The position numbers were made by a program, and so were the translations under genes. A stretch of DNA of 32,000 nt from Candidatus Saccharimonadota bacterium (GTDB lineage Bacteria; Patescibacteriota; Gracilibacteria; UBA4473), in the NCBI GenBank assembly GCA_965228485.1, contig OZ245819.1:180001-212000 (forward strand), given 5' to 3'. The notes beneath the pieces were generated by a model. It was given only the letters and a program-made list of their open reading frames with translations. It had not been told where the DNA came from and made no database searches. Below are positions 3,377 to 32,000 of the stretch, in pieces (the stretch's first letter is position 1; each line of letters opens with the position of its first letter).

Positions 3377-4356
3377 TATGCTTCGCAGTTCAACGCTATG
3401 CTAAAGCTTTCTAGATTATTTTCCATCACATCAAAGAAATCTTTGTTTGGATCGAGAGTTCCTCGTCCCATTGGGTTTACGTTGAGGGTTCCTAGTCCTG
3501 TTTCGTTGGCGAGTGTGTCGGCAAACTTTTTAACTGAGTTTTTTTCTACTAAAATATGAGTCATCCCTTCTTCGGCTTCTTCTTTGAGTTCGGCGAGGAT
3601 TTGTGCTGATGGTTCGTCGGTAATGGAAAGACCAGCAATGGCGTGAGTTTCAAATCCGTAAGCTCGTGCCAGATAACCATAGGCATCATGAGAAATGATC
3701 ACTTCGTTTTGTGTACAGTTTTGGAGTGTCGTTTGAAATTTTGTATCTAGTGCCACAAATTTTGATTTTAGATTCTGAGCATTCGTTTCATAGGTCGTTT
3801 TATTTTCTGGATCGATTTCGATCATAGATTGCATGATTGTATCTACCATATCAGAAGCGAGAACTGGACTGAGCCACGTATGTGGATCGAATTTTCCATG
3901 GTCGTGTTCATCGTGTCCCTCTTCCTCATGAGCTTCATCTTCATGTTCTTCTTCATGCTCATCATCCTCATGATGTTCGTCTTCATGTTCTTCATGATCT
4001 TCGAATTCATAAAGTTCTAGGTGTTCAGATAGTTCGAGCGTGTTAACACTTTTTTGATTGAGTTCTTGCACTATATCTTCTGACCAAGGTTCAAGTTTTG
4101 CTCCTTGGACAAGAACAAGGTCAGCATTGTTTAGTTTTACCAAATCTTGAGGCGTTAATTGGTAGGTGTGAGGGCTCACACTTCCGGCCAAGTTTGTTAC
4201 GGCGACTTTTTTACCTCCAATTTCCTCTGCCATGAAAGCTAGAGGATAGAAGCTCGCAACAATTTGTTTTTGGTTTTCATTATTGGTTTCAGTTTCTTTA
4301 CCACATCCGATAAGGGTGAGTGATAAAAGAGTCAGAAGTAGAAAAGTTTTTTTCAT
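3376..4356 (-). CDS. znuA: zinc-binding lipoprotein, ZnuA family (cluster A-I substrate-binding protein)
   Basis: The track ORF starts at 4401, but the internal ATG at 4356 gives a lipoprotein signal (MKKTFLLLTLLSLTLIGC). There is a long His/Asp/Glu loop (HEEHEDEHHEDDEHEEEHEDEAHEEEGHDEHDHG, roughly 3880-3990), typical of Zn-specific ZnuA. Conserved metal-ligand context is present (SPHTYQL, DPHTWLSP, ISHDAYGY). Confidence 0.85.
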   Translation of the reverse strand: MKKTFLLLTLLSLTLIGCGKETETNNENQKQIVASFYPLAFMAEEIGGKKVAVTNLAGSVSPHTYQLTPQDLVKLNNADLVLVQGAKLEPWSEDIVQELNQKSVNTLELSEHLELYEFEDHEEHEDEHHEDDEHEEEHEDEAHEEEGHDEHDHGKFDPHTWLSPVLASDMVDTIMQSMIEIDPENKTTYETNAQNLKSKFVALDTKFQTTLQNCTQNEVIISHDAYGYLARAYGFETHAIAGLSITDEPSAQILAELKEEAEEGMTHILVEKNSVKKFADTLANETGLGTLNVNPMGRGTLDPNKDFFDVMENNLESFSIALNCEA

Positions 4357-4379
4357 GTTTATAAAATTAAATAAAAAAT

Positions 4380-4760
4380 TTATTGGCAAGATTTGCAGCA
4401 ACCAGAAAAAGAAAACTGGTGTTGTTTAATTTTGAGACCAGAGGCCTTGAGCTGGTCTTCGAGTTGGTGAATTTTTTCCTCTAAATCTTGATCAGAAATA
4501 CACTGGATTTCATCACAGTTTTCACAGACAAAGTGATGGTGATGATGATCGGCTTTTTCATAGTAAGTCGTTCGGCTATCGAGTAGAACGGTATCGATTT
4601 TGCCATTGGATTCGAGTCTTTCTAGGAGTCTATAAAGTGTCGTTTTATTTGGTTCTAGGTTTTGTTCTTTCAGCAATGCCTGTAATTCTGGAACAGAAAT
4701 AGGGCGGTGTTGATCGGTAAAAATTTTTAAAACGGTCTCGAGTAATGGTGTATTTCTCAT
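4380..4760 (-). CDS. zur: Fur-family zinc uptake regulator (Zur)
   Basis: The likely start is ATG 4760 (MRNTPLLETVLKIF..); the upstream extension to 4817 overlaps the preceding gene. It has a winged-helix N-domain (TTLYRLLERLESNGKI), then HHHHHFVCENC and a terminal GCCKSC, the two CxxC pairs of the Fur/Zur structural Zn site. Confidence 0.8.
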   Translation of the reverse strand: MRNTPLLETVLKIFTDQHRPISVPELQALLKEQNLEPNKTTLYRLLERLESNGKIDTVLLDSRTTYYEKADHHHHHFVCENCDEIQCISDQDLEEKIHQLEDQLKASGLKIKQHQFSFSGCCKSCQ

Positions 4761-4790
4761 AGGTGCAAAATATATAATGGAAACAAAAAA

Positions 4791-4803
4791 GCAACTTAGT
4801 AGC
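4791..4803. promoter_or_regulatory. candidate Zur operator (one-mismatch copy GCAACTTAGTAGC)
   Basis: It differs at one position from the 6-1-6 palindrome GCAACTnAGTTGC found twice at 6001-6044. It lies about 35 nt upstream of the zur ATG, next to an AT-rich -10-like TATATA, and overlaps the COG0523 stop codon. Confidence 0.4.
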
Positions 4804-5995
4804 TTTGAACAGTCCAAGCTGGGAATGGGTCAGCAAGTTTTTTCCATTCAGCTATTCCCGCATCAAATTCTTCATCGGTGAGTAGACATTGATCTAGTTT
4901 TTTGGTTATTTCTTCTTGGTTGTGTTTGATTCCGATAATTACGATTTCCTGTCGTCGATCTTTGTAGCGAGGATCCCAATTATTTTTTTTGGCTAGAATT
5001 TTGATCGGCTCTGGCCATTCTTCCATATCCACAGCTCCCCACCAACTACCAGCACAATCAAGGTTTCTCATCTTTCCAGCCTGAGAAAATGATCCTACAC
5101 CTTCCCATCGTGAAGCGAGCCAGAAATATCCTTTTGCTCGAACAACTCCGTCCCAATTTTCTTCACAATATTTCCAAAATCGTTTCGGATGAAATGGACG
5201 ATTGGCTCTATAGACGAAACTGCTGATTCCATACTCTTCAGTTTCAGGTACGTGCTCTCCACGAGCTTCTTTCAGCCACATTGGGTCTTGAGCGGCTCTT
5301 TCAAAACTAAATTTATTGGTATTTATGATTTTATTGAGTGGGACTTGGCTGTAGTTTGTTTCGATAATTTCCACACCTGGGTTTAGAGACTTAATTATTT
5401 TTCTAATCTTTTCTAGCTCACTTTTGGTCACCATATCTATTTTGTTGAGTATCAAGATATCACAAAATTCGATTTGATCGGTTAGAAGATTTACAATGTC
5501 TCTTTCGTCTTCTTCTCCAAGAGATTCATTTCGATCTTTTAGCGTATCGGTTGATTTAAAGTTATCCAAAAAGTTGGCCGCATCGACCATGGTCACCATG
5601 GTGTCTAGACGGGCAAATTCTGCCAGGTATTCTCCGCTTTCATCATCAAAAGTAAAAGTTTCGGCCACAGGAAGGGGTTCAGAAATACCCGTAGACTCAA
5701 TGAGTAGATAATCGAATCGATTTTCTTGAGCGAGTTTTTTTACTTCGATTAATAAATCTTCACGTAGTGTACAGCAGATACACCCATTACTCATTTCAAC
5801 GAGTTTTTCTTCGGTTCTAGAAAGATTGGCTTCTCCTTTTTCAATGAGTGAAGAGTCAATATTGATCTCAGACATATCATTTACAATAACAGCGACTTTG
5901 AGTCCTTCTCGATTCGTAAGAATGTGATTGAGTAGGGTAGTTTTTCCAGATCCTAAAAATCCAGAGAGTACGGTAACGGGTAATTTTTGATTCAT
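4796..5995 (-). CDS. COG0523-family GTPase (CobW/YjiA/ZigA-type zinc metallochaperone)
   Basis: P-loop [15 protein letters not shown], the metal-binding CxCC motif (GCICCTL), NKID, and a CobW_C-like C-terminal domain. The track uses TTG 6004; ATG 5995 ([10 protein letters not shown]) is more plausible. It is the first gene of the zinc operon. Confidence 0.85.
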
Positions 5996-6000
5996 AAATA

Positions 6001-6013
6001 GCAACTAAGTTGC
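6001..6013. promoter_or_regulatory. candidate Zur operator, perfect palindrome GCAACTAAGTTGC
   Basis: Perfect 6-1-6 inverted repeat, 5 nt upstream of the COG0523 ATG, in the divergent region shared with the CNNM gene. Confidence 0.45.
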
Positions 6014-13187: not shown

Positions 13188-14018
13188 TTGTTCAATAAAT
13201 TGGTTATGAAAAGATTTTTTACCATTTTCGCTCTCATGTCTTTTTTAGCCGTTCCAGGAGCTTTTGCTCAAGAAGGATCAGAGCTAGAAGACTTAATTAT
13301 CGATGATTTTGGAGATGATTTATTCCTTCCAGATGAATCAACTTTAGATGATAGTTTAGAATTACCAGAAGCCCCCCCTATTGGAAATGAAGGATTTGAT
13401 GATTCAGAACTGATCCTAGATCCTTTTGTAGATGATCTTGGAGGAGATGAAATTCTTACTCCTGTAGCAGACAATCCTATCATTGAAGACAATCTTGTCG
13501 CAGAAGACGAAGCTCATAGTAGTGCTATGGCTCCGTCAGGGAATCTTCCAGCTTCAGCTAATGCAACTTTCAGCGTTGTAAATGTATCTCAAGATAATCA
13601 AGATGCAGAAACAGTAGGAGCTCGTCCTGGAGATTTGCTTCGATATGAACTACGGATTACTTCTGATGTTGAAGATGTTAACGATTATGTGGCTTCAATT
13701 GATGTGGCTAATGTGATTGCTGCTCTAGATTTTACTGATACAGGGCTTGGAGTTCTTGAAAACGGAAGAATTACTTATCCTGCTTACTCTAATGCGGCTC
13801 CTTGTGAACAAGTTTTCACTTTCTTTGCTCAGGTTAAACCTGATTGTGGAGATCTAAGAAGTTTGGCCGTTGGAGCTGAAGGAGATAGTACAACGGTTGG
13901 AACCAGTTGTGAGTTGGCTCAGACTGGTCCAGGTCAAAGAATTTTCCTTGTGGCTGGTATTATGGTGCTTATGATGAGTTTAATTCTTGGGATGTCTTGG
14001 AGATCTAAAACTTCATAA
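13188..14018 (+). CDS. acidic secreted protein with C-terminal LAQTG cell-wall sorting signal
   Basis: Signal peptide MKRFFTIFALMSFLAVPGAFA|QEG (likely start ATG 13206). The N-region is Asp/Glu-rich, and there is a PGD..RYEL..T segment. The C-terminus is LAQTG + hydrophobic FLVAGIMVLMMSLILGM + basic tail WRSKTS, the tripartite sortase-substrate architecture. Confidence 0.65.
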   Translation: MFNKLVMKRFFTIFALMSFLAVPGAFAQEGSELEDLIIDDFGDDLFLPDESTLDDSLELPEAPPIGNEGFDDSELILDPFVDDLGGDEILTPVADNPIIEDNLVAEDEAHSSAMAPSGNLPASANATFSVVNVSQDNQDAETVGARPGDLLRYELRITSDVEDVNDYVASIDVANVIAALDFTDTGLGVLENGRITYPAYSNAAPCEQVFTFFAQVKPDCGDLRSLAVGAEGDSTTVGTSCELAQTGPGQRIFLVAGIMVLMMSLILGMSWRSKTS

Positions 14019-15505: not shown

Positions 15506-16396
15506 CTATTTATTAAATAAAATTAATCCACATTGATCTCCAAATATAGCTTTGAGGTTTTCGAGTTCTAGGGTTGTAGTGCTTCCCATTTTTATAAGCA
15601 GAATTGGAGTATCTACTGTTCCATCTATATTATCTGACGGTGATAAGGAAAAGAACTTTTCAGCTGCGGGAAAAGTCCCTATAAGGCGAGGGGATTCAAA
15701 AGTCAGGATGAACCTTTCGAGAAGTTTTTCGTCATGAGCGCCTGGTTTATCGGTAATATGTAGTAGAGGAGCGTCTGGGAATACTTTTCGAATTTGGTAG
15801 TAAAAAGAAACACGACCTCTAATAGATTCAATAAGATAGATAGCAAAGAGACTGAGACAAAATCCTGCAAAGATTGAAAAGCTTAGACTCCAAGAGTTTG
15901 GAATGGAAGCATCCAGGCTAAAGACTTCTGGTTTAGTCATTTTAAAAGGAAAAGTACTATCTTTCGTCAGCGCTTCAAAACGTTCATTTATATTTTTGAT
16001 AGTAGCTTCGGTGATTTTATTACGATGTTGATTTTCATCCCCATAGAGCTTAATTGTCCAGAATACATTCAGGTAATTCTGCTTACGAGCAGAGATTTTT
16101 CGTTTGAAGTTTGGAATAAAGATTTCAGCATCTTTTAGTACATCTTCTCTGAAGCGTGGATTTTGAGCCCACCCAGCAATAGCTTCAGCGGTTTTCATAG
16201 TGCTTTCTGCGGGGTCCATGCTATTGATAGCGCTATTTTCAGCAGCGATTGGAGCGAGTGAAAAATAGATGGTTGTTTTTTCGATTTTTGGAATTTGAGA
16301 TAGCCCTGTGTAAATAGCTGCAGATAAAGCTACAAAAGTAAGAATCCAGATATATTTATATCTTTTTAGTGGTGATAGTAAGTCTCCAAAATGCAT
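15506..16396 (-). CDS. hypothetical bitopic membrane protein, polysaccharide co-polymerase (Wzz/PCP)-like topology
   Basis: 296 aa. It has an N-terminal TM (YIWILTFVALSAAIYTGL), a soluble domain of about 130 aa, a second TM (WSLSFSIFAGFCLSLFAIYLI), and a C-terminal ~100 aa ending ..GLILFNK. That tail is reminiscent of a BY-kinase-like domain without a Walker A. The gene is packed 3-4 nt from purF and purM. Confidence 0.3.
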   Translation of the reverse strand: MHFGDLLSPLKRYKYIWILTFVALSAAIYTGLSQIPKIEKTTIYFSLAPIAAENSAINSMDPAESTMKTAEAIAGWAQNPRFREDVLKDAEIFIPNFKRKISARKQNYLNVFWTIKLYGDENQHRNKITEATIKNINERFEALTKDSTFPFKMTKPEVFSLDASIPNSWSLSFSIFAGFCLSLFAIYLIESIRGRVSFYYQIRKVFPDAPLLHITDKPGAHDEKLLERFILTFESPRLIGTFPAAEKFFSLSPSDNIDGTVDTPILLIKMGSTTTLELENLKAIFGDQCGLILFNK

Positions 16397-19846: not shown

Positions 19847-20980
19847 ATGGGATCTGCAAAGTATAAAATTGGTATCGATTGTCGGATGTTTTCTGATAGT
19901 TTTACAGGGATCGGTCGTTATAATTACGAGCTGACAAAACGTCTTTTTTCTCAAACAGAAATCAATGGAAAACCTGTAGAATGGGTTATTTTTATGAATG
20001 AACCTGAAGCTGGGAATTTCTCATTTCCAGATCATGTAAAAAAGGTTTCGGTTAATGCTCGACATTATACTTTTAGAGAGCAGTGGGCTTTCTGGCGAAT
20101 TCTTATGAAAGAGAAATGTGATTTAGTTCATTTTACTCATTTCAACCTCCCGTTTTTGTATAGACGTAAGTTTGTTGTGACGATACACGATACAACGATT
20201 TCTTTTTTCCCAGGGAAGAAAATGAATGTTTGGTGGCGAAAAATGGCTTACCGTTTAGTTTTTGGGCACGCAGTTAAATCTTCAGCTGGGATCATAACAG
20301 TTTCTAAAAACACGAAATTGGATGTAGTAAAACTTTATCCTGGTACAGAGGAAAAAATTACTGTTATCTGGAATGGTCTAGGAAAGGATTTTGTTTCGGT
20401 AGATATTGATGAGCAACTCCAGGTGAGCAAGAGGTATGATTTAAGTGATCGGTTTTTACTTTACACGGGGGTTTGGAGAGAGCATAAAAATCTAGTGGGA
20501 TTAATTAAGTCTTTTGCTCTAATTTCTAAAAATAATCCGGATTTAAATCTTGTGATTACCGGAAAAGAGGATCCTTACTACCCAGAGGTAAAAACGGAAG
20601 TTATAAATTGGGGATTAGAAGATAAGGTTAAGTTTGTAGGGTTAGTACCTTTTCATGACTTAGTGGCATTGTATAATGCGGCTGAAATTTTTGTTTTTCC
20701 GAGCTTTTATGAAGGTTTTGGTTTTCCCCCATTGGAAGCCATGCTTGTTAGCACTCCAGTATGTGCTTCTGAATCAGCTTCCATTCCAGAAGTTTGTGGT
20801 GAAGCGGCCTTGTATTTTGATCCTACGGATATAGAAGACATGGCTCAGAAAGTAGAAATGCTTTTGTTAGATGAAAATTTAAAATCAAGCCTTATTGAAA
20901 AAGGGTTGAAACAGACTTCTCTTTTTTCTTGGGATACTTGTTCTAAGGCAACGTTAAATTCTTATATAAAGTATTCTTAG
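19847..20980 (+). CDS. glycosyltransferase family 4 (GT-B, 'group 1')
   Basis: 377 aa. The C-terminal domain carries the family motif ..FVFPSFYEGFGFPPLEAMLVSTPVCASESASIPEVCGEAALYFDP.., the EX7E-type signature. Confidence 0.8.
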   Translation: MGSAKYKIGIDCRMFSDSFTGIGRYNYELTKRLFSQTEINGKPVEWVIFMNEPEAGNFSFPDHVKKVSVNARHYTFREQWAFWRILMKEKCDLVHFTHFNLPFLYRRKFVVTIHDTTISFFPGKKMNVWWRKMAYRLVFGHAVKSSAGIITVSKNTKLDVVKLYPGTEEKITVIWNGLGKDFVSVDIDEQLQVSKRYDLSDRFLLYTGVWREHKNLVGLIKSFALISKNNPDLNLVITGKEDPYYPEVKTEVINWGLEDKVKFVGLVPFHDLVALYNAAEIFVFPSFYEGFGFPPLEAMLVSTPVCASESASIPEVCGEAALYFDPTDIEDMAQKVEMLLLDENLKSSLIEKGLKQTSLFSWDTCSKATLNSYIKYS

Positions 20981-21074: not shown

Positions 21075-21103
21075 CCACTTAACTCACAAAAATAAAAATT
21101 GCT

Positions 21104-21220
21104 ATGCTACACTCTCCTGGAGCGAAGACTTCCTGGTTTGGTGCGATAGGACGTAAAATCCTGTCAATTTTTTTAGTATGGGCATTATTGCTTCCACTAC
21201 TGCCACCACAGGTTTTTGCT
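21104..21220 (+). other. Sec signal peptide of the giant protein
   Basis: MLHSPGAKTSWFGAIGRKILSIFLVWALLLPLLPPQVFA|QS has a basic n-region (R17 K18), a hydrophobic core and an A-x-A-like VFA cleavage site. Confidence 0.7.
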
Positions 21221-24200
21221 CAGTCGGTAGTAGCTCCAAAGGTGCAGGTGACAGATTTAGTGGTATTATTGGTGGATAAAGATTTGGTTTCTCAGGCTTC
21301 TCTTAAAAGTCGAATTAACCGCTATGCAGAAGATGTTCAGAGAGCTCTAGAGCATCAAGCGGTAGTTATTCCTGTGGACACGGATTCATCTATACTTCGC
21401 ATCCATGAATTATTGGCTCAATATTATTTTTCAGGTCGATATAATGATGGACTTTCCCGACTTAAAGGAGTGGTTCTTATTGGGGATTTGCCAATCCCAG
21501 TAGTTGAAAAAAATGGTAATTACTGGCCATCCGTCTTTCCTTATGTTGATTTCGAAAATACGAGTTATACCTGGGATTACGAGAAAGAGCAGTTTGTTTA
21601 TGAAGACAATTACCTCATGGCACCAGAAATCTGGCATAGTATTATTCGTTCAAATAACGAGGAGTTAGAAGATCGGGTGGAGGAGTTAGAAGATTTTTTT
21701 GATAACAATCATCAGGTTCATCAAGAACAGACTGATTTTTCTAAAAAAGTGTTCTATGCTAATTTCGAACGTCAGAGAAAAGTGATTCCTGCTGAATCAT
21801 TTTTTCGATATCAGGAATGGATCAAGTATGCTGAGCCAATTCAGTATCTAAGATTTACAAAACACTTCGCCAATGAGCTTATTGAAAATCAAAAATCTGC
21901 GGGGATTGGAAGTGGTGTTTTTGATAATTTAACAGACGAAGAAAAAGAGGAATTGGCTGATGAAATAGCTGATTCTGAGGAAGATGTATCGAGAGAGGAT
22001 GTTTTAGAAAGTTTAAATGCTGATACACTTTCAATGATGCCAGATGTTCAATCAAAATTACTGATTGATAATTTTGCACAGAGGTATTTTGAAATTTATA
22101 CACATTGGTTAACCGAAGTTCATGAAAGAGTTGGAAAGGCTGCCAGATGGAAAGCTGGAGAGGTAGACACTACCCCGTCACTGGTTTCTCGTAAAGATGA
22201 AGCTTCCGTGCTTATTTTGCGTTATTTTAATGATTTAGTGGAAGAGGAGTTGGTGAAGACTTTTAATGAAAACAATATTGCTACACATCTTTATATTAAT
22301 CATGAGGTTCCAGTAATCTATACAGTTGGTGATGGAGAAGGTGGTTCTCATGAAGAATGGGCTTATAAACCTTTTTATTGGAATGGAGTTTATCCAAAGA
22401 ATGATTTTGAGGTAGAGAATTGTACGCTTATCCGTGGAAGTAAAAGAGATATTCAAAATCAGCCCTTAGCTCAACAGGTTGAAGCGAATAACACTCTGGA
22501 TATTAGAACAGCCGAAACCTGTAAGCATACCCAAGAACCAGGTTATGCTTCGGATCCTTATGGAGGGTGTTGTGCTAAGAATTTGAAGTATGAGAATGAG
22601 GAGTTTACCTATAATGGCTGTATAGCAACTTCCACTTGGATGGGGGGGCAGAATGGGGAGTCTTCACTCTATCATTCAGGAGCACGTAATCCTGTATTAG
22701 GGCTAGCAGGAACAAGAGAGATTGACGGAAAGCAAGGGGCTGCAGGGTGTCTGGCGGCTTTACACTTTAACGAAGCAGAAGAACATTCTACAAAATTTTC
22801 TACGCTTATGATTCATGATGAGCCAAAACCCGAAACGGTTATGGAGCAGGTTGAGGCACAATTTAGTCGAGCCCTTCCAGTGGATGATCCTCGTGGTTTC
22901 TCTTTTTTAGATCACGGTCGTCAATTCCGGCGTCTGGCTTTCCCAAATGTTTTTGAATTTAGAGAGCAGTTTGATAGTTTTGAAGCTTTTGAGGCCGCTG
23001 TTAGGGGCAGTTTGATTTCAAAAATAAAACAAGTTAATCAGATTACAGAAGGAGGTAATGTTGCTTCTGCGGATCGTTTTGATAGTGAATCAACTATTTA
23101 TGCCTGGCCAGCTCCTCCAGAGGCGCCACCAATACCAGCGGTTCAAACAGAAGGAGCTCAGATGGATTGCAGTATTACAAACGGTATTCAACAGGTAGAT
23201 GAATTTACAAAGGTTCGTGTTTGGACACGGAATTGTGAAGAATATGATGAATCTGAAACAACAAGCCCAACCGGGGGAGTAACGACTACTCGAAATAGTC
23301 TGTACAACTATACGGATGTGGTAAAACGTTATTATGAATCTGGTAACGAAATTGAGGAATCAGCCATTGTTGATGAATTTTTAAAAACTGTTGATCTTGA
23401 AAAAGTTTATGAAGCGATTACTTGGATTGATAAAAATGTAGAAGAAAAAAATAGAGAAGTATTTGAGGTGGCAATGGGAGAAGTCGATGAATTCCAACGT
23501 TTCTTTTTTGATACAGAAAGTGACGGTTATGAAGTTGTTGAAATTTTGGGAGAGGGGACTCATGAAAATGGGCTAGAGTTGGCTTTTTCTCCTCTGCAAA
23601 TTAAAGCTGATAGAGAATATGAGGACGGTACTGATACAGGAACAGGAATCGATGATGATGATTTAACTTCTTTATGTGAAGGTATTCCGTCTCGACCAGA
23701 ACTTGATATGGAATATTTGAAAGCCAAGGAAAAGTTTGTGAAATTTCAGTTTAAAAATGGTGAAACTAAAAATGTGTTTTTAGGCCAAGACATGGCGAAA
23801 ACATTTTTAAATACCGAGGCAGAAGATAAGTGTGATCAAATCCCTTCTACCTTACTGTACTGGCCTTCAAAAATTGCTTGTTCAGCCAAGGCTACAGCGA
23901 GTGGGGCGAGTAAAAAATTGTTCTTAGGTGAAAATCTAGGGACCACAAAACCATTTGAGCCGGTGATTGAAAGTTTTGATGTTGATCTTAAAAATAAAAA
24001 TCTATTGGTTGAGTCTGATAACATAATGCTTCATGCACAATCGGTTGATCCACTTGAGGTTAAAGTGAAGCTAGTAGACATTGATGGTAAGTTACAAGAG
24101 CAAGATTTTTCAACGCAGGTGGAACTTGATTTCAGTACCCAAGATGCGGCGAGACTCTTTAAGATTGCTCCATCTCAGAGCTTGCCACTCACCAAAGGAG

Positions 24201-27200
24201 AGGCTATTTTTTATCTGATTCCACAAACTAGTCAGTTTGGTGGTAAAATAGAAATGACTGCTACGGCTACTCGTGATGATTCCGAGCTAGAGCTGGCTTC
24301 AGAGCCAGTACCTGTTTTGGTGAGTCGTTATGGGCTGTTTGGAATATCAGAAAGTGAACAAGTAGTCGTAAAAGACAAGGATGGGGTGAAAATTAAAGCT
24401 CGAATTTTAGATCAAAACAACAAGCTAACGAGCGATATGGATGGTGTGAGCTTGAAATTTAAAACGGAGGCAGGAAGTTTTATTGGGGGAGAAAATAGAG
24501 CTATCGTAAAAGAAGGGATTGCAGAGATTACCCTTTTGCCAGGAACAAAGGCTGGTAAATTTAAGATTTATATTTCAGATCCTTCTGAGAGAGTTGCTCC
24601 TTATGAGGTCAATATTGAGTTATTACCAGATGATCCAGCGACTATATATGTTAGTAAAAAATCATCGTTTTTAGTTCAGGCTTCTTCGTCTATTCCAATT
24701 ACGGCTAAATTATTAGATCAGTACGGGAACATTGTTTATGATGTCTTTCATAAATGGTCTTGGCAGTGGGAAAACTTGAATATTGAATCACTGGAAGAGA
24801 GAGATATAGATCCTCGAGTTTCAGGGCTTCAAGAATTTACAAATTACTCAGGAGAGAGCACGGTGTTGGTGTCTCCAACTCCGGGGACCTCTACGGCAAG
24901 GCTTACTATTGGGAGCGATTACTGGGAAGATGGGAATGCTAGAAGTTTAGGTTTAACGGTAATTAAAGATCCGACCTTTTGGGTCGAGCTCAATAAATCA
25001 GAAGTTATTGCAGGAGGTGAAGATACTTTGTCGGTTTCAGTTGAAGCGCGAACAGCCGAAGGAACCGCTATAAAAGATGATTTTAATATTTCCTTGGTAG
25101 TTTCTCCAGTGAAGGATGGAGCTTATCCTGAAACAATTGACCTTGTGGATGGGAGAGCCTCTTTTGATATTACTCCAGGAACTCTTGCGGGTAAGTTTAA
25201 ACTTTTCTTCCACAGTCCAGGTTTTGTGCCAGGAGAGTCGGAGTTTACGGTTTTACCAGGAGAGCCTGAAAAAATAGAGCTTTCTCGATCAGGGAATGTG
25301 CGTTATGCGGCGGAATTTGATACGGACAAAACGGTCCCAATTGAAGTAAAGGTTTTGGATGAATTTAGAAATGTGGTTCCAACCTTTACTGATAGAATAG
25401 ATTTAAGAGCCACTGAAGTTACCAGCTATTTAGTCGATATCCCAGACGATGAAAAGCAAGTGACTCGGGGAAGTAATATTGTTGAACTTCAGCCAAAAGG
25501 CTTGGCTGGAAAAGTTCGTCTAATTGCTGAACATGATGATTTGGTCGGAGATACTCTTGAATTTGATTTAGCCGATTTCTTTAGAATCCAAGATGTAAAA
25601 AATCTGGCTCCAAAATCATTGCTGACTTTGATTCTTGGTTTTGAAGCTGGGGATTTACGAGATAAAGAAAACTTTGCAAATACCTTTTTACATGTGGGAT
25701 CGACACAATCGGTTGGAACTTTAACTGTGCCGCCATTACCACCTCTTCAGTATGGTTCTCTGGCTCCAGCAGGAAGAATTGGGAATGGATTGATCGCTAA
25801 GTTTGTTTCGAGTTCATATCCAGAATTCTTATTGGAATCTGATGATAAAATTCTGACGCAGCAAAGACTCTTTTTCGGACGTTCACCCAAATTTTATTTA
25901 AATCAAAGTATCTCAGATGAAGGGGTTTATGTGCAAGTGGAAGATGAAGATACCCCAATACTGTTAACTGATAAAACTTTGTACTGGAAAGAGAAACCTC
26001 TTTTGAGATTGGAACCTGAAGGAGGGTTAACCATTTTAAGTGGGGTACTCGAACTCGTTCCAACTGATAATATTTTTGTTTGGGATATTGAGTATGAGTC
26101 AGATGTTATTGGGACGCTTACCTTTGAAGAGGAAGCGAAAGAATTGCAGACAGTTGATAAGTTTGAGTTGATAGATGACTTCTCTGGACTTCAAATTCGT
26201 CCGATTGATACCGATATCTATTTTAATCGTGTGTTTGTTGGTAAGAACACCCATGATGCCTTGGGGGTTGGTATTTTTGATCAACAAAAAACAGAAACCA
26301 GAACTCGACGTTTGGGGGCAGACTTCCCATCAGCCGAATCACTTTTGGTTAACAATGAACTTGTGTGGGATCAAGAATGGAAACCTGGGACTACCATGGC
26401 AGCATTTAACTCGATAGGAATATCTTCTCAGTGGGGATCGAGTGATGCCTTTATTATGTATGGTGACCCAAGCCTGAAATTGAGAGGTGAAAACGAGCGA
26501 AAACCAAATGGATTTACACAAGATATAGGAAGACCTTTATGGAGATCTGGAGATGGAACTATTCGAAAAATTATTGGTATGGATGTCAATGATGATGGGA
26601 ATATGGATGTTCTTTCCCTCGTCGAAAATACATTGTATGCACTCTATCAGACCGATGAAAAAAGGGCTCACTTTAGAGATACAGGACCTATTATTAAATT
26701 TACAGATGGAGTGGTTAGTCTGGCGGGAATTAATCTTGGGAATACAGAAAATCCAGATCACAAAGATCTGATACAACTTAATAGTAGTGGTAAATTAAAA
26801 CTTTGGAAAAATAAAGATCAGGGAGTTTTCCGTTCTCATCAGATTGATCTTGGTCTTGAAAACTCAATAGAGAGTTTTCAGGTAGCAAAACTTAATACTG
26901 ATAATTTTGAAGATTTGATTGTGGTTGACCGTCATCACAAGGTATGGGCTTTGTACGGGAAAGCTAATGAGTTTCATCCTCCAGTGTTTATAAAAGACTT
27001 ATCACCTGAATTTAGAGCAATTGATGAGTCTTTTGCTTATGCTAAAGATGATTACGCTCCGATTAATCTAAAATATTCTATGTTCTCTTTTGAGGGGATT
27101 AGAGAGGTTGAATCTATAGAGCCTTTAGAATGGAATCGTTTCACTAGACCAACAGCGCCAGTTCAAACAGAAATTGAACCAGAAGACTTAGAACCCTTAC

Positions 27201-30200
27201 TGCTGAATGACTACTACAATACAGGAGGGGAAACTTTAACAGATGAAGCTATTTTTGTTAGGACTGACCAGGCTTCTTTTTTAAGTGAAGTAACTCTTGA
27301 GACTACTTCAGATAATGAGAAGTTAAAACCAGGAGACAGAATTAAGGCCGAATTGGTGGTAACGGCCAAAGGGCCATTAAAAAACTTTGCCCTACTTCCA
27401 GCGAAAGAAGGAAATTCAAAATTCCTTGAAGAAACTTTTCGATGTAGTGGATGTTCTGGAGATGTTCGTCTTTACCCTGGTGCAGGAGATGGATTCTTCT
27501 GGGCAGAAGTTGGTGATATAAGCGACAAAGTAACCTTTACTTGGCAGGAAGAAATTTCTGAGCTTAATACCCTTAAATTCTTTGTTGGGAATTTTGACAA
27601 AGGATTTGATGATCTTGATGATGTAACACTGCCTTGGTTTCAAGAAGATACAGAAGTTTTAATGCAGTTTTTAACTCAGAAAAAAACAGGAGATAAAGCT
27701 TCTACTACAGAATCTCCATACTTATTAAACCCAGATATTTTAACGGTTAGTAAGCCAAAACTTTCTCTTGATCTCATCCAAAACCTTTCTGAAGAAGATT
27801 TGAATAAACGTTCGGAAGAATTGTTTGGCCGAGAATCAGATATTGATAACGACAACCTTCCTTATAGTTTTGATCACTACAATAGTCAGAATAATTTTGA
27901 TGTTGATCGAAGAGCGGCTTTGGGCGGAGGAAATGTAAATTTTGATAATTTACTGAAATCAAATAACCAAGAAAAAAGAGCTCAAATGTTGATGGGAGGA
28001 GGGAGTTGTTTTAATCAACCAGAGTCGGCGGCTCCTAATGCTCCAGGGTTGATTAATGATAGAAAAGTTCCTCATGCTAAACCGAAAGGAAAACAACAGG
28101 GGCAATTCCAACTTTCTTGGCTAACAACTAAATATACGCCCTCAGGCCCGGTCCCAAGTACCTCACCTCCAGATAGTCCAGGAGAGAGAACGGAGCCACA
28201 TCCATACAAGTCTATGGGACGTTATTATGTGATGCCAACTTCAACTGGAAAAACTGGGACAGCGATCTGTACAGGTTCTTTTCCTGTTCATATGGCGGCT
28301 CCAAATTGGGCTCCAAATTGTTTTGTTTCAACGCCTCCAGTTAAATTTATGCAGAGTTGTGCAAATCCTCAGGACTATGAACCAAAAGAGGATCAACTTA
28401 TGTGTGCGGCTGATAGCTTTGTTTCAGGAAGTTCGGCTATTGCTACAAGTGGAGGTTCTGCTGGGAAAGGGAATGCTTCTATGGGAAGAGGACCTGGGAA
28501 AATAAATGCTCCATTAACGGGAACAAATGCAACAAGTTTTCAAAACCTTTCATCAGGAATGATGAATAACGATAAGACAGGAAAAGGGAATGCAACAGCA
28601 AGTAGTATGAAGCCAAATCCTGATTTTTCTTCAAAAACTAGAACGAACCCTATGACCGCAGGAGGGAAGAAAGATCAAAACTTGAATAATCTTATGGCTG
28701 ATATTGTAAATGTAACTCACGAGCCAGTGCCTGTGAGTATTCCAGCTACAAGTCAATCTGAGATGGATCAGGCAGAGGAAGATTTTGCCCAAAATCAAGA
28801 ACAACTGAAGCAGGTGATGGACGAGAAAATCCCACCAGCGGTTGTGGATCTTAAAGATGATCTTGAAGTTACACTAGAGGATTTAGAAATGATTCAAAAA
28901 GGAGATTTTGATGATTTCACATTACCGCCAATAGACCGTTTAACTTTGGCTTTAGAAAGTTATGAATCGCAACTAGAGGCATTCCGTGGAAGTATAGAAG
29001 AGAAAGTTTGCACTTCTTCAGGAAAAGCTTCTACTTGTGAAAATGGACGGAAGCTTATTCGTCAGGCAGAAGCACGATTGAGAACAATCAAAACTGTTTT
29101 GGGAACTGATTATCAATCAAATGCTGAGAGTGTTGAAACTTTTGTCGATGGAGCAGGAGAGCTTTCAGAAGAGATTGAAATCTTCTCAACGGATTTAGAA
29201 AGTTATGTTGATTCTTTAGAATCTCCAATTGAGGCTCGAGAAGAACTCCAAAATCATATGGTTCGATTTGAGCAGAACTTTAAAAATCTGGATCAAGCTG
29301 CAGGGAGTGGAGCGCAGAAGGTTTTACAAATTAGAGATCTTGAAAATAAGATTGTTTCTTCTACGGCCCAAATTGTTGAGCAGTATCAGAATTATCATAA
29401 AGGTTGGATGGCTCAGAACCAGAAAAGAGAAAATGAGTGGAAAGCTCAGTCAGAAGTTAATAAGCAGATTCTTTCTATGATGCAGACGGTTCCACAAATC
29501 TATACAGATTTCGCAAATAACTGTAGGACTGGAACCGTGGATCGAGCCACTTTGCTTCCATGGTTAACCGACCATGTGTTTGAAAAAGGAGCTTCTCGTA
29601 AGGTGATTAATCTTCCAACAACACCAAATACGGAGTTGGATGGTCGTCAGATGACACCGGCCAAAATGGATCTTAAGCTTCCAACTCCTCAAATCACACA
29701 AGTGGCGATAGGACCACTTGATACCATGGAAAATATTCCAGAAGTGCCAGATTATTCAGAAGAAATTGATGATGGAGTCGTTACTTTTACCGATAAGGTG
29801 AACTTAGCGGAGAAAGTAAATACAACTCGTACAGAATTAGAAAATTGGAATGAAATTTATAATACTTTGAGAAAAACTTCTCAATTCTTTCCAACCCTGG
29901 ATAGTAATGGAAATATTACTCAAAAGGGAAGTACAGAAGCTATTCTTCCAGCCGTTTCAACAAATTTTGACCCTGTTTCCTTGGACGATCTAGAAAACCT
30001 ATTGCAGACCGAAATTCCAGAATTAATTGAAGAAAAACGAATGGAGCTACCATTTGTTAAGAATCTTCCTGCCACAGCAGGCGGAGGGGAGAGTTCTTTC
30101 CAACCAGATATTCCAAGTCTTCCAATGAGCCAGCTACCATTCTTACCACCACCTCCAAAGATGGATAATTTGACTTGTGGGATGCTTAATAATTTGAAAG

Positions 30201-32000
30201 TTCCACTCTCATTCTTGAATTTGGAATGTATGATTCGTTTGGGAGTAGCCCCTGTGTCTGAGTGGTATGTAAAACCTCATGTAGAGAGAAGAACTAATCG
30301 TTCAGCACTTTCAAAAAATAAAGACTTTACTTCGTCTTCGATTAAACCAGGACCATTTACAGGAAATCCGAGTACTATGAGTGTCTTTGGGAAAAGTGGA
30401 AGAAACTCTATTTTTGAAGGAAATCATGATCAACTAAAGGAAGCGGCAAAAGGCCAAAGTTCTTTTATTAAATCCAATTCTCAATCGCCTTCCACTAAAG
30501 GCTTGAATAGTATCCCCGCTTCAGGAGGTGAAACGATTAAAACTTCTTCTCTTGATCCATTAAAAGAATGGAAAAATTGGCTCGTTACAGGAGAAACAGA
30601 ATCTGAAAAAGCACTAGAGCCAATCGCTTTTTTGAAAGCTCTGAAGCATTTATCAGAAACGATGCCAACCTATGTTGATGCGCAAGAAAAATTAAAAGTT
30701 CAATTAGCGACAACGGAAATTCCTGAGTCTATTACCAGGGCAAGAGAGATTAAAGAAATAGATACCGCCTTTAATAATTATTTGGCTAAACTTGAATCTT
30801 ACAGACAAGAACGATTACAAGAAACTAAAAGACTTAAGTATGTATACGAAAGTCAGCCAGAAACTTTCTTTGAAGATCGATTTGTTCAAAATACGATTTC
30901 TAAAGACAAACGTTTCTTAGCGGCTAATACTGATAGCGCGCTTGACTTTGAAATTCCAGTGAGAGAATTTACAACCAGTGTGGCACAATTTGAACCACCA
31001 GTAGAAGATACGGCAGATTTTGAATTTGTGGCGGATAACTTTGAAGAAAATATTAATCAAGATGAATCAAGCAATAGCTGTGCCAATATGGTAAAGCCCG
31101 GGATTTACTACGGGGATGGTAATGGCGATAGCTTGGATAGAATTAATAAGCTGCCATACCGAACTATTAGTGCTTATGCGGTCTTTGACCTAGATGATGA
31201 TGGAGTGAATGAAATTCTCTATGGATTGGGAGCAGAGCTCTTTGTAAAAAGAAAATCAGGACCGAGTGGAGAAACTCTTAAGTTTAATTTGGAAGTTATC
31301 AACAGCATTGATCTAGATGATTTTGAAAGGCCTGTAGATACATTGGAAAACTATGAATTCTATGGGGCACTGAATAGTGAATTTGGAAAAGATGAATCTC
31401 TAGCCAATTATACGGAATGGGAATTCTCTGAACGACCAGACCAGATTTTTGAGCTTCATAAAACCTCCGCTAATAAGTATGCGAACTGGAAATCTTCTTT
31501 AGGGACTATTTCTAGAGGCATTCCAGAGCAGGGAACTTTGAGAGATACGACCGCTCAAATTGTAGAAGTAAAAGGTTCTCCACAGATTAAATCTCCATTA
31601 AAAATTCCTCTACTCAAGTTTGAACCAGAAGCTTGTGCCAATGAGAATATTGTAAAACCTTTCATTCAGAGTGGGATGGTTATGGCCATAGATGAACCCG
31701 CAACGGTTCAGGTTTACTTCCCACCAAATAGAGCCCGAGAAGCGAGAGTAGAAGTACATGATATTGCCCCAGGGGAAGAGCTTTATTTAGAAGATGCTGA
31801 TGTTTGCCTCTTTGAGGGAACGGCTTGGTTTGCTCAGTATGATTATTTGGATGAATATGATTTTTGGGTAACAAACCAACAAGTTTTTGCGGGTAACAAT
31901 GAGGAACTTGAGCCAAAAGTTATTAAATTTGCTGACGGATCAGAAGTACTTATTGAAGGGCGGGATGAATGGCTTGAAAAAGTAGAAGACGGGACATTCC
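21104..32000 (+). CDS. giant secreted/surface protein, 3' end outside window (at least 3,632 aa seen)
   Basis: I translated the frame (codon starts congruent to 2 mod 3) codon by codon from ATG 21104 to base 32000 and found no TAA, TAG or TGA. It is absent from the ORF track because no stop lies in the window. Features include a signal peptide, Ig-like repeats, FG-GAP-like loops, scattered Cys pairs, Pro-rich linkers and a helical region. Confidence 0.9.
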   Translation, partial: MLHSPGAKTSWFGAIGRKILSIFLVWALLLPLLPPQVFAQSVVAPKVQVTDLVVLLVDKDLVSQASLKSRINRYAEDVQRALEHQAVVIPVDTDSSILRIHELLAQYYFSGRYNDGLSRLKGVVLIGDLPIPVVEKNGNYWPSVFPYVDFENTSYTWDYEKEQFVYEDNYLMAPEIWHSIIRSNNEELEDRVEELEDFFDNNHQVHQEQTDFSKKVFYANFERQRKVIPAESFFRYQEWIKYAEPIQYLRFTKHFANELIENQKSAGIGSGVFDNLTDEEKEELADEIADSEEDVSREDVLESLNADTLSMMPDVQSKLLIDNFAQRYFEIYTHWLTEVHERVGKAARWKAGEVDTTPSLVSRKDEASVLILRYFNDLVEEELVKTFNENNIATHLYINHEVPVIYTVGDGEGGSHEEWAYKPFYWNGVYPKNDFEVENCTLIRGSKRDIQNQPLAQQVEANNTLDIRTAETCKHTQEPGYASDPYGGCCAKNLKYENEEFTYNGCIATSTWMGGQNGESSLYHSGARNPVLGLAGTREIDGKQGAAGCLAALHFNEAEEHSTKFSTLMIHDEPKPETVMEQVEAQFSRALPVDDPRGFSFLDHGRQFRRLAFPNVFEFREQFDSFEAFEAAVRGSLISKIKQVNQITEGGNVASADRFDSESTIYAWPAPPEAPPIPAVQTEGAQMDCSITNGIQQVDEFTKVRVWTRNCEEYDESETTSPTGGVTTTRNSLYNYTDVVKRYYESGNEIEESAIVDEFLKTVDLEKVYEAITWIDKNVEEKNREVFEVAMGEVDEFQRFFFDTESDGYEVVEILGEGTHENGLELAFSPLQIKADREYEDGTDTGTGIDDDDLTSLCEGIPSRPELDMEYLKAKEKFVKFQFKNGETKNVFLGQDMAKTFLNTEAEDKCDQIPSTLLYWPSKIACSAKATASGASKKLFLGENLGTTKPFEPVIESFDVDLKNKNLLVESDNIMLHAQSVDPLEVKVKLVDIDGKLQEQDFSTQVELDFSTQDAARLFKIAPSQSLPLTKGEAIFYLIPQTSQFGGKIEMTATATRDDSELELASEPVPVLVSRYGLFGISESEQVVVKDKDGVKIKARILDQNNKLTSDMDGVSLKFKTEAGSFIGGENRAIVKEGIAEITLLPGTKAGKFKIYISDPSERVAPYEVNIELLPDDPATIYVSKKSSFLVQASSSIPITAKLLDQYGNIVYDVFHKWSWQWENLNIESLEERDIDPRVSGLQEFTNYSGESTVLVSPTPGTSTARLTIGSDYWEDGNARSLGLTVIKDPTFWVELNKSEVIAGGEDTLSVSVEARTAEGTAIKDDFNISLVVSPVKDGAYPETIDLVDGRASFDITPGTLAGKFKLFFHSPGFVPGESEFTVLPGEPEKIELSRSGNVRYAAEFDTDKTVPIEVKVLDEFRNVVPTFTDRIDLRATEVTSYLVDIPDDEKQVTRGSNIVELQPKGLAGKVRLIAEHDDLVGDTLEFDLADFFRIQDVKNLAPKSLLTLILGFEAGDLRDKENFANTFLHVGSTQSVGTLTVPPLPPLQYGSLAPAGRIGNGLIAKFVSSSYPEFLLESDDKILTQQRLFFGRSPKFYLNQSISDEGVYVQVEDEDTPILLTDKTLYWKEKPLLRLEPEGGLTILSGVLELVPTDNIFVWDIEYESDVIGTLTFEEEAKELQTVDKFELIDDFSGLQIRPIDTDIYFNRVFVGKNTHDALGVGIFDQQKTETRTRRLGADFPSAESLLVNNELVWDQEWKPGTTMAAFNSIGISSQWGSSDAFIMYGDPSLKLRGENERKPNGFTQDIGRPLWRSGDGTIRKIIGMDVNDDGNMDVLSLVENTLYALYQTDEKRAHFRDTGPIIKFTDGVVSLAGINLGNTENPDHKDLIQLNSSGKLKLWKNKDQGVFRSHQIDLGLENSIESFQVAKLNTDNFEDLIVVDRHHKVWALYGKANEFHPPVFIKDLSPEFRAIDESFAYAKDDYAPINLKYSMFSFEGIREVESIEPLEWNRFTRPTAPVQTEIEPEDLEPLLLNDYYNTGGETLTDEAIFVRTDQASFLSEVTLETTSDNEKLKPGDRIKAELVVTAKGPLKNFALLPAKEGNSKFLEETFRCSGCSGDVRLYPGAGDGFFWAEVGDISDKVTFTWQEEISELNTLKFFVGNFDKGFDDLDDVTLPWFQEDTEVLMQFLTQKKTGDKASTTESPYLLNPDILTVSKPKLSLDLIQNLSEEDLNKRSEELFGRESDIDNDNLPYSFDHYNSQNNFDVDRRAALGGGNVNFDNLLKSNNQEKRAQMLMGGGSCFNQPESAAPNAPGLINDRKVPHAKPKGKQQGQFQLSWLTTKYTPSGPVPSTSPPDSPGERTEPHPYKSMGRYYVMPTSTGKTGTAICTGSFPVHMAAPNWAPNCFVSTPPVKFMQSCANPQDYEPKEDQLMCAADSFVSGSSAIATSGGSAGKGNASMGRGPGKINAPLTGTNATSFQNLSSGMMNNDKTGKGNATASSMKPNPDFSSKTRTNPMTAGGKKDQNLNNLMADIVNVTHEPVPVSIPATSQSEMDQAEEDFAQNQEQLKQVMDEKIPPAVVDLKDDLEVTLEDLEMIQKGDFDDFTLPPIDRLTLALESYESQLEAFRGSIEEKVCTSSGKASTCENGRKLIRQAEARLRTIKTVLGTDYQSNAESVETFVDGAGELSEEIEIFSTDLESYVDSLESPIEAREELQNHMVRFEQNFKNLDQAAGSGAQKVLQIRDLENKIVSSTAQIVEQYQNYHKGWMAQNQKRENEWKAQSEVNKQILSMMQTVPQIYTDFANNCRTGTVDRATLLPWLTDHVFEKGASRKVINLPTTPNTELDGRQMTPAKMDLKLPTPQITQVAIGPLDTMENIPEVPDYSEEIDDGVVTFTDKVNLAEKVNTTRTELENWNEIYNTLRKTSQFFPTLDSNGNITQKGSTEAILPAVSTNFDPVSLDDLENLLQTEIPELIEEKRMELPFVKNLPATAGGGESSFQPDIPSLPMSQLPFLPPPPKMDNLTCGMLNNLKVPLSFLNLECMIRLGVAPVSEWYVKPHVERRTNRSALSKNKDFTSSSIKPGPFTGNPSTMSVFGKSGRNSIFEGNHDQLKEAAKGQSSFIKSNSQSPSTKGLNSIPASGGETIKTSSLDPLKEWKNWLVTGETESEKALEPIAFLKALKHLSETMPTYVDAQEKLKVQLATTEIPESITRAREIKEIDTAFNNYLAKLESYRQERLQETKRLKYVYESQPETFFEDRFVQNTISKDKRFLAANTDSALDFEIPVREFTTSVAQFEPPVEDTADFEFVADNFEENINQDESSNSCANMVKPGIYYGDGNGDSLDRINKLPYRTISAYAVFDLDDDGVNEILYGLGAELFVKRKSGPSGETLKFNLEVINSIDLDDFERPVDTLENYEFYGALNSEFGKDESLANYTEWEFSERPDQIFELHKTSANKYANWKSSLGTISRGIPEQGTLRDTTAQIVEVKGSPQIKSPLKIPLLKFEPEACANENIVKPFIQSGMVMAIDEPATVQVYFPPNRAREARVEVHDIAPGEELYLEDADVCLFEGTAWFAQYDYLDEYDFWVTNQQVFAGNNEELEPKVIKFADGSEVLIEGRDEWLEKVEDGTF
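24001..25570 (+). repeat. about five tandem divergent Ig-like (Big/invasin-type) domains within the giant protein (aa ~966-1489)
   Basis: Units of about 100 aa share one pattern: a strand ending in a [VIL]xAx[VIL]xD..G/N motif, then a ..G.A.[VIF].[VIL].P....G.[FV]K[IL].. tail. Examples: VKIKARILDQNNKL..GIAEITLLPGTKAGKFKIYISD; IPITAKLLDQYGNIV; LSVSVEARTAEGTAI..GRASFDITPGTLAGKFKLFFHS; VPIEVKVLDEFRNVV..NIVELQPKGLAGKVRLIAEH. The repeats are visible at protein level only, not at DNA level. Confidence 0.6.
26560..26960 (+). repeat. three consecutive FG-GAP/VCBS-like repeats (putative calcium-binding beta-propeller blades) in the giant protein
   Basis: The three units are GMDVNDDGNMDVLSLVENTLYALYQ, then NPDHKDLIQLNSSGKLKLWKNKDQGVF, then LNTDNFEDLIVVDRHHKVWALYG. 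The D-x-N-x-D-G-x-x-D loop followed by a hydrophobic strand is the FG-GAP hallmark. A fourth copy (AVFDLDDDGVNEILYGLG) lies at about 31180-31230. Confidence 0.5.

Follow-up and report, generated by a model that had tools for sequence, protein, structure and literature searches.

The closest described counterparts of the protein analysed here are giant proteins of Peribacter riflensis and Vampirococcus lugosii. Cultured Absconditabacteria are epibiotic predators that have giant surface proteins and drain the cytoplasm of their prey, and the largest giant protein of V. lugosii, VAMP_16_20, is a 'hypothetical' protein of 4,163 amino acids (aa) (PMC8080830). Peribacter genomes encode extracellular proteins that vary between strains, reach 3,861 aa and have been proposed for attachment, alongside S-layer genes and a heavy investment in the envelope (PMC4736985), and the Peregrinibacteria are reported to be enriched in huge proteins without COG assignment (PMC11573180). 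Here we examine a stretch of 32,000 nucleotides from contig OZ245819.1 (positions 180,001 to 212,000; hereafter the window, whose coordinates are used throughout), in which the original prediction, made from the sequence alone, had placed a single giant gene running unterminated from position 21104 to the last base. The Peribacter and Vampirococcus giants share with its product the clade, the size range, a predicted secreted or surface location and integrin/FG-GAP-type annotations (PMC4736985, PMC8080830). They have been listed individually, with no family defined, and are compared here by description; some of them may be orthologous to the family reported below.

One giant gene and its family

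Window positions 21104-32000 (+) are the first 97% of one intact gene of 3,729 codons. Translation proceeds through 3,632 codons without meeting a stop, so that the in-frame stops named at the outset as grounds for discarding the frame are absent; the remaining five frames over the same interval hold 169-426 stops each, and the probability of 3,632 stop-free codons, computed from base composition, is ~1e-117. The preceding in-frame TAA lies at 21080, and the ATG at 21104 is the earliest start thereafter. GC content at codon positions 1/2/3 of the gene is 0.52/0.37/0.28, and its codon usage correlates with that of 19 neighbouring genes at r = 0.88. The exhaustive profile search described below returned a protein of 3,729 aa (P0003) that is identical (100%) to the window protein at each of the latter's 3,632 residues, from which it follows that just 97 codons (plus the stop) lie beyond the window. 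P0003 is encoded on a single contig of 1,295,315 bp (NCBI and ENA) and is on record from there alone; the contig suggests a closed small genome. A second protein, P0004 (3,552 aa), is collinear with the window protein from end to end at 33% identity and is encoded in the same gene order. As had been supposed, the frame is missing from a mechanical list of open reading frames (ORFs) because it runs off the window end. The product is strongly acidic (D+E 605 versus K+R 363), and a repeat search of the window protein found no internal or tandem repeats.

With aa 1-1000 as query, a word-index search yielded two homologues only, and an exhaustive profile search was therefore needed to reveal the family. 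A profile built from those two homologues was compared with 1.84 billion cluster representatives; at E <= 1e-3 there were 528 matches, of which 307 had E <= 1e-30. Among the best 150 of the 528, 113 members reach at least 3,000 aa (hereafter full-length members), and layout was counted on these; they are 3,005-5,860 aa long (median 4,111 aa) and bear a characteristic N-terminal module (N-module) at the extreme N-terminus. Local profile hidden Markov models (HMMs) were built for five conserved blocks and scored on these members. The N-module was found in all 113, the PVPEW block in 110, the C-x-TC-VDRG block in 107, the C-terminal domain in 93 and the Cys/Pro block in 91, and the order of the five blocks was identical in every one of the 113. 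The window protein has all five blocks in this order, a length within 3,000-5,900 aa and a single N-terminal hydrophobic segment. By these profile matches, the giant protein belongs to a large family in which the order of blocks is fixed. The mosaic that had been proposed is thereby upheld in its multi-domain content, but not as a one-off assembly. The clusters related to P0003 are labelled 'hypothetical protein', and a literature search found no account of the family, its fixed layout or the N-module; the family is thus undescribed, the sequence itself being public.

A scan of one genome per species located 79 loci, about one per genome, labelled as Candidatus Peribacteria/Peregrinibacteria, Gracilibacteria, Absconditabacteria/SR1 (including the human oral HOT-345) and Altimarinota; a C-terminal tile found no match in the genome and metagenome scans. 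Nine of the loci (L055, L046, L043, L073, L036, L029, L034, L063 and L060), which belong to SR1/Absconditabacteria and some Gracilibacteria, have 35-131 in-frame TGAs, so that gene calling with the standard code would fragment these orthologues. Under table 25 (TGA = glycine) all nine are open from the start of the match to the end of the fetched sequence, over more than 3,500 codons in 7 of the 9, and the block order is unchanged wherever enough sequence was fetched. Since these orthologues stay open under table 25 and have the same block order, the gene predates UGA reassignment in the clade and was kept through it. We also noted that, over ~3,900 codons, L027 (oral GN02-873) has one in-frame TGA and L032 none. 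In two further loci, L038 (CP064978.1, a complete Peregrinibacteria genome) and L026, the N-module frames stop at TAA after 789 and 1,264 codons; possible explanations are a truncated paralogue, a pseudogene or a frameshift.

The N-module is a novel module of ~620 aa, modelled with high predicted confidence. AlphaFold2 (AF2) run with a 46-sequence family alignment gave a mean predicted local distance difference test score (pLDDT) of 91.5 and a predicted TM-score of 0.77; with a 3-sequence alignment the pLDDT was 31.5. The model consists of an alpha/beta sandwich (aa ~50-220), a helical bundle (~220-390), a beta-rich part containing six cysteines (~395-620) and a long helix (626-658). It agrees with the alpha/beta module and the Cys-rich segment read from the sequence beforehand, the cysteines standing at aa 440, 473, 489, 490, 506 and 549. 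The local HMM for the module matches the window protein over aa 17-800 with an E-value of 4e-267.

We considered whether the N-module belongs with the gingipains (Peptidase C25, clan CD), and rejected this. Its first ~165 residues superpose weakly on gingipain RgpB (Foldseek probability 0.91-0.97, TM-score 0.16-0.23, E not significant), its best match in a viral structure library is a caspase-domain protein (E again not significant), and an H-G at a strand end is conserved across N-modules; His178 is conserved, but the window copy has Ser next to it, not Gly. No model of the peptidase family matched in 33 members, and because cysteine is absent from aa 1-439 there is no catalytic dyad, so that the module is not a clan-CD peptidase.

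Beyond the N-module, the sequence landmarks listed by the original prediction were all recovered (Table 1). The Ig-like domains and FG-GAP repeats it named fall below threshold in the window copy and are supported at the family level, where 12 members were scanned with Pfam. Among these, Glyco_hydro2_C5 occurs in 9 (best E 5.5e-18) and FG-GAP_3 in 11 (best E 6.6e-17), and two match the Ig-like families better (Invasin_D3 1.4e-8, Big_1 1.5e-5). The beta-rich region at aa 1490-1960 is covered by ~100 of 154 matching family members (111 of them full-length) and contains a DVNDDGNMD loop at aa 1827. Repeat proteins of the PDB match a 23-sequence profile of this region over the last ~150 positions of the profile only (secreted esterase 8w20, E 4.6e-5), and a complete seven-blade propeller is therefore not demonstrated. 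Two Pro-rich linkers, AWPAPPEAPPIP at aa 667-678 and LPFLPPPPK at ~aa 3010, and an N/G/S/T-rich linker (42% of these residues over aa 2401-2500) are present as described. So is the helical stretch, whose profile (aa ~2541-2770) matches solely proteins of heptad-repeat type (S2 HR1 mimic 3e-5, SNARE design 7e-5, HA2 2e-3, SMC, as well as keratin and designed helical proteins), and the additional FG-GAP-like loop expected near the window edge reads DLDDDGVNE at aa 3362. In the coverage profile, conservation does not extend into the final ~100 aa of the full protein.

Large parts had been said to match nothing that could be named, and the library, PDB and Pfam searches bear this out. Neither aa 680-960 nor aa 2000-2284 has a library match, and the C-terminal domain has no PDB match. 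A word-index search with an alignment of the C-terminal blocks returned nothing, Pro-rich words having probably swamped the index. For the window protein, PADLOC gave no match, PHROGs noise only and NCBIfam one spurious match.

Single family members carry extra modules, namely GH114 (E 3.5e-59) and Peptidase_M15_3 in P0037 (L082:8001-22568), and SLH (7e-14), TSP3_bac, DUF11 and PKD in others; none of these six occurs in the window copy. In another member (L005:12783-15968), linkers that are short in the window protein contain expanded Pro-rich tandem peptide repeats (MPEMPEFE..., LPTLPSLP...), and linker length therefore varies between lineages.

Table 1. Features of the giant gene and of the gene upstream of it, in window coordinates.
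Feature	Position	Strand	Basis
GT4 glycosyltransferase gene, 123 nt upstream, co-directional	19847..20980	+	Pfam Glycos_transf_1, E 4.9e-33
Giant gene, codons 1-3,632 of 3,729	21104..32000	+	stop-free frame; P0003 identity; collinear 33%-identical homologue P0004
Signal-peptide-like N-terminus (aa 1-40)	21104..21223	+	hydropathy and motif
Family-defining N-terminal module (aa ~45-665)	21236..23098	+	AF2 model; 528 profile matches
Pro-rich linker AWPAPPEAPPIP (aa 667-678)	23102..23137	+	sequence
Region conserved chiefly among closer relatives (aa 680-960)	23141..23983	+	coverage profile
Ig-like stalk, about five domains (aa ~960-1490)	23981..25573	+	Pfam, window copy and family
Conserved beta-rich region with FG-GAP/VCBS repeats at its end (aa 1490-1960)	25571..26983	+	Pfam, profile
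Region with conserved C-x-GC motif and acidic DxDGDG-type loops (aa 2000-2284)	27101..27955	+	alignment consensus
Conserved Cys/Pro/Gly-rich block (aa 2285-2429; GGGSCF...APGL...R-Y-MPT-TG...PNCFV)	27956..28390	+	HMM E 1.7e-57; hydrophobic in many members
N/G/S/T-rich low-complexity linker (aa ~2430-2540), variable in alignment	28391..28723	+	composition
Helical, coiled-coil-like stretch (aa ~2541-2770)	28724..29413	+	profile
Conserved block W..IP..F..F...C-x-TC-VDRGTL-WL (aa 2771-2867)	29414..29704	+	HMM E 4.9e-36; hydrophobic helix in many members
LPFLPPPPK Pro-rich linker, then PVPEW-VKP-VE-TNR block (aa 2996-3084)	30089..30355	+	HMM E 1.5e-39
Conserved C-terminal beta-rich domain (aa 3292-3630)	30977..31993	+	HMM E 4e-108; coverage profile

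Probable role at the cell surface

The N-terminal 40 residues have a basic n-region and a hydrophobic core, ILSIFLVWALLLPLL, followed by VFA|QS; the sole segment of the protein with KD19 > 1.5 begins within aa 11-25, and relatives have VWAQ sites at the position equivalent to VFA|QS. Export through the Sec pathway, which had been predicted, is most likely, as judged from hydropathy and an AXA-like motif only. At the other end the protein terminates in ...PQFFPIITQSEDEE (tail also quoted as ...YYKPQFFPIITQSEDEE). It had been suggested that extension past the window would disclose a C-terminal anchor. The stop follows 97 codons on, and the C-terminus of P0003 has neither a hydrophobic segment nor LPXTG. 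The window protein also lacks the RTX motif GGxGxD and has no HemolysinCabind match in Pfam. In the family, the C-terminal part contains three conserved blocks that are unusually hydrophobic. Taking the maximum KD19 as the measure of hydrophobicity and random windows of the same proteins as background, the Cys/Pro, C-x-TC-VDRG and PVPEW blocks have median values of 1.36-1.52 against 0.64, and 1.6 is exceeded in 20-38% of the three blocks against 2% of background. Such blocks could hold the protein in its own membrane, contact a target membrane or form buried cores.

The giant protein is probably a Sec-exported cell-surface protein that mediates contact with a host, a reading we favour because of its domain types, its acidity, its fast divergence, the wall-acting or wall-binding modules of single members and the lifestyle of the clade. 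Divergence was gauged at six loci that share the gene neighbourhood, where identity to the window copy is 70-82% for PurF, 57-61% for the GT4 glycosyltransferase and 40-48% for the N-module; the giant protein is therefore the fast-evolving member of its neighbourhood, as expected for an interaction surface. Under the host-contact reading, the signal peptide would be cleaved after export and the protein would stay at the cell surface without a covalent anchor, held by the conserved hydrophobic C-terminal blocks, by small secreted proteins that relatives encode downstream, or by both. From there the FG-GAP region and the N-module would reach outward on the Ig-like stalk and might bind to the surface of the host or prey cell that these small-genome bacteria need. 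The parts of this scheme that we infer are retention at the surface, the binding of a ligand and the role in host contact.

Several observations weigh against a role in host contact. No ligand-binding domain was identified with confidence. Against the PDB and the viral structure library, Foldseek searches with the N-module model gave nothing at E <= 1e-3; a 33-sequence profile of the module matched no PDB chain, and none of the 33 N-modules matches any Pfam family (E <= 1). All Pfam matches of the window copy's stalk lie below the curated cut-offs (Big_1 at aa 1087-1156, 16.7 bits versus 34.9; Invasin_D3 at 1295-1373, 16.5 versus 33; Glyco_hydro2_C5 at 1406-1484), as does FG-GAP_3 at aa 1887-1940 (nt 26762-26923; 25.6 bits versus 26.9). 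LPxTG is found in the last 60 aa of none of the 113 full-length members, and a C-terminal transmembrane-like segment in 1. The three blocks of the window copy are milder than those of the family at large (KD19 0.49, 0.28 and 1.34), as they are in its nearest relative, and since they are just weakly hydrophobic, surface retention is unexplained in this copy. The original prediction had stressed the GT4 gene directly upstream; it is indeed there in the window, but synteny of the pair breaks down beyond the nearest clade, and we rejected GT4 as a family-wide partner. Finally, a fixed non-repetitive layout would be unusual in an adhesin, as would a copy number of about one per genome and a place among housekeeping genes; all three fit a structural role in the envelope equally well.

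That structural role, in which the protein would be part of the bacterium's own envelope (as a coat of S-layer type, a scaffold that spans the wall or an element of cell division or shape) and not an adhesin, is the alternative that survives best, although we regard it as unlikely. The features just named favour it, the layout being collinear in all 113 members and repeat expansion typical of adhesins being absent, as do the position next to SecA in two distant relatives, the SLH domains of 1 of 12 scanned members (E 6.9e-14) and the S-layer genes and envelope investment of Peribacter (PMC4736985). It has to contend with a window copy in which Pfam finds neither SLH nor another wall-binding domain, with a divergence that is fast relative to the neighbouring genes, and with FG-GAP and Ig-like domains, which are more typical of ligand binding; moreover, a protein of more than 3,000 aa with so many kinds of domain is unlikely to be the subunit of a lattice.

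It is improbable that the protein is instead a membrane-active or lytic device for predation or feeding, whose N-terminal two thirds dock and whose coiled coil and hydrophobic blocks insert, fuse or deliver wall-degrading modules. The family-wide hydrophobicity of the three C-terminal blocks is what such a device would have, the helical stretch between blocks matches only heptad-repeat proteins (S2 HR1, SNARE designs, HA2), P0037 bears both GH114 and Peptidase_M15_3, and cultured relatives drain the cytoplasm of prey (PMC8080830). However, coiled-coil matches are expected from composition alone and have marginal E-values, the blocks of the window copy are weakly hydrophobic, the enzymatic modules are confined to single members and missing from the window protein, and no homology to a known pore-former or fusogen was found. 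More doubtful still is the proposal that the whole Gracilibacteria/SR1/Peribacteria clade uses the protein as its core machine at the host interface. The N-module and FG-GAP region would dock, the coiled coil and three hydrophobic blocks would breach or bridge the host envelope, and some lineages would bring their own wall-degrading enzymes; if true, this would be a new type of device for penetration from one cell into another, with no relation to any known secretion system or fusogen.

An artefactual origin of the long frame, be it through chimeric assembly, as a pseudogene or by the misreading of separate genes as a single one, is close to refuted by the minute chance of such an open frame, by more than 100 homologues of similar length and the same block order, by synteny kept among relatives and by the lack of repeats able to mislead an assembler. 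Nothing in its favour turned up; the exact product is on record from one contig only.

Whichever of the functional readings applies, host contact being the one we prefer, the giant gene takes up ~11 kb of a 1.3-Mb contig, roughly 1% of the sequence, and its conservation at this cost implies an important function.

Genomic surroundings

The order PurM, hypothetical protein, PurF, TPR protein, GT4 and giant gene is kept in the six loci used above for the identity comparison (L001, L003, L004, L006, L007 and L011), and is not seen in distant members. The spacer between GT4 and the giant gene contains no terminator-like site, and its promoter-like matches are no commoner than in shuffled sequence. 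Beside those for PurM, PurF and the TPR protein, the window has other ordinary chromosomal genes, among them three tRNAs, a Zur/ZnuABC/CobW zinc cluster and the genes for an Na/H antiporter, an MFS transporter, FtsX and RecO. By PurF (82% identity), the nearest genome in a collection of species representatives is a 1.33-Mb 'Candidatus Altimarinota' chromosome, a phylum within the Patescibacteria group; the single 1.295-Mb contig and these relatives bear out the earlier assignment to a small-genome organism.

The region downstream of the giant gene was read in relatives only. In L001 (20683-24731) and L082 (22572-28039), the latter with a giant protein of 25% identity, the giant gene is followed directly by three closely spaced genes on its own strand, each for a protein that has a signal peptide and no Pfam match, and past this trio lies a divergent SecA. 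L004 (20575-22265) keeps at least the first two genes of the trio at ~48% identity, and L007 (16282-17058) keeps at least the first, a gene for a secreted protein that abuts the giant-gene stop. The arrangement of trio and SecA is absent from L083 and L084. The trio proteins of L001 and L082 have no detectable similarity to each other, and the trio is not supported as a set of homologues; what L001, L004 and L082 share, and L007 for at least the first gene, is the position and the presence of signal peptides. Elsewhere, near P0005 (L084:5876-7863), we observed genes resembling pilins of type IV secretion systems, a transposase and toxin-antitoxin pairs upstream, with further toxin-antitoxin genes and Fic/RhuM downstream, and this copy may lie in a mobile or variable region.

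In the window, TGA terminates none of 19 ORFs of at least 100 aa (11 end in TAA and 8 in TAG), and it never occurs in frame in ~10,000 codons. In the closest relatives TGA ends just 6 of 58 ORFs (~10%), which gives P ~0.13 for the 0 of 19 seen here; the figure is therefore unremarkable, the standard code fits the window, and recoding or TGA avoidance was ruled out.

Some further features of the window were noted in passing. The compact zinc-homeostasis cluster (1866-6004, -), whose genes overlap at their ends, encodes ZnuA together with a CobW-family GTPase, a Fur-family regulator, an ABC ATPase and an ABC-3 permease. Three ORFs, at 15506-16396 (-), 13188-14018 (+) and 405-1529 (+), have no Pfam match. 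The 296-aa ORF between PurM and PurF retains its position in the nearest relatives, with 48-55% identity, and the first 1 kb of the window has an unusually low GC content of 0.275.

Comparison with known giant surface proteins

The giant protein resembles giant bacterial surface adhesins in its Ig-like stalk and calcium-loop repeats, but fails the tests that define the intimin/invasin, RTX/type I secretion, LPXTG, SLH and C25 groups. Invasin, intimin and other Big_1 adhesins likewise present an Ig-like stalk, which makes up just ~15% of the giant protein and is sub-threshold there. They further possess LysM, a beta-barrel membrane anchor and a C-type-lectin-like tip, all lacking from the giant protein; Pfam matched no LysM or beta-barrel anchor in the window protein or the 12 scanned members, and the novel N-module occupies the N-terminus. 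LapA, SiiE, MpIBP and FrhA are giant, acidic, calcium-associated adhesins of type I secretion systems, with an Ig-like extender and distal binding modules. These rely on repeats and a C-terminal type I secretion signal, whereas the giant protein has a Sec-type N-terminus, no RTX and no tandem repeats; the bacteria considered here are generally regarded as monoderm. With integrin-alpha-like FG-GAP/VCBS proteins it has in common FG-GAP_3 repeats with DxDxDG calcium-type loops, matched over the last ~150 aa of the region and just below the cut-off in the window copy. Its coil, flanked by hydrophobic blocks, gives marginal matches (3e-5 to 2e-3) to class I viral fusion proteins and SNARE-like fusogens, among which stand SMC, keratin and designed helical proteins as well.

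Proteins that are also huge, extracellular and mostly unannotated are known from other bacteria whose lifestyle depends on interactions, namely the predatory Omnitrophota (bioRxiv 10.1101/2023.11.21.568195) and Apilactobacillus kunkeei with Giant1-5 (PMC12863079), and some of them have been tied to cell-wall degradation. They belong to unrelated phyla, show no detected sequence relationship to the family reported here and are larger or form multi-gene arrays, and neither group has been described as an orthologue of fixed layout across a whole clade. For the recognition, holding and exploitation of hosts by ultrasmall Patescibacteria, Type IV pili have so far been the main named players. Beside them, an anonymous hypothetical protein now becomes a defined family of ~4,000-aa proteins extending from groundwater Peribacteria to human-oral SR1, whose N-module and three hydrophobic blocks offer concrete targets for study in the few cultured relatives.

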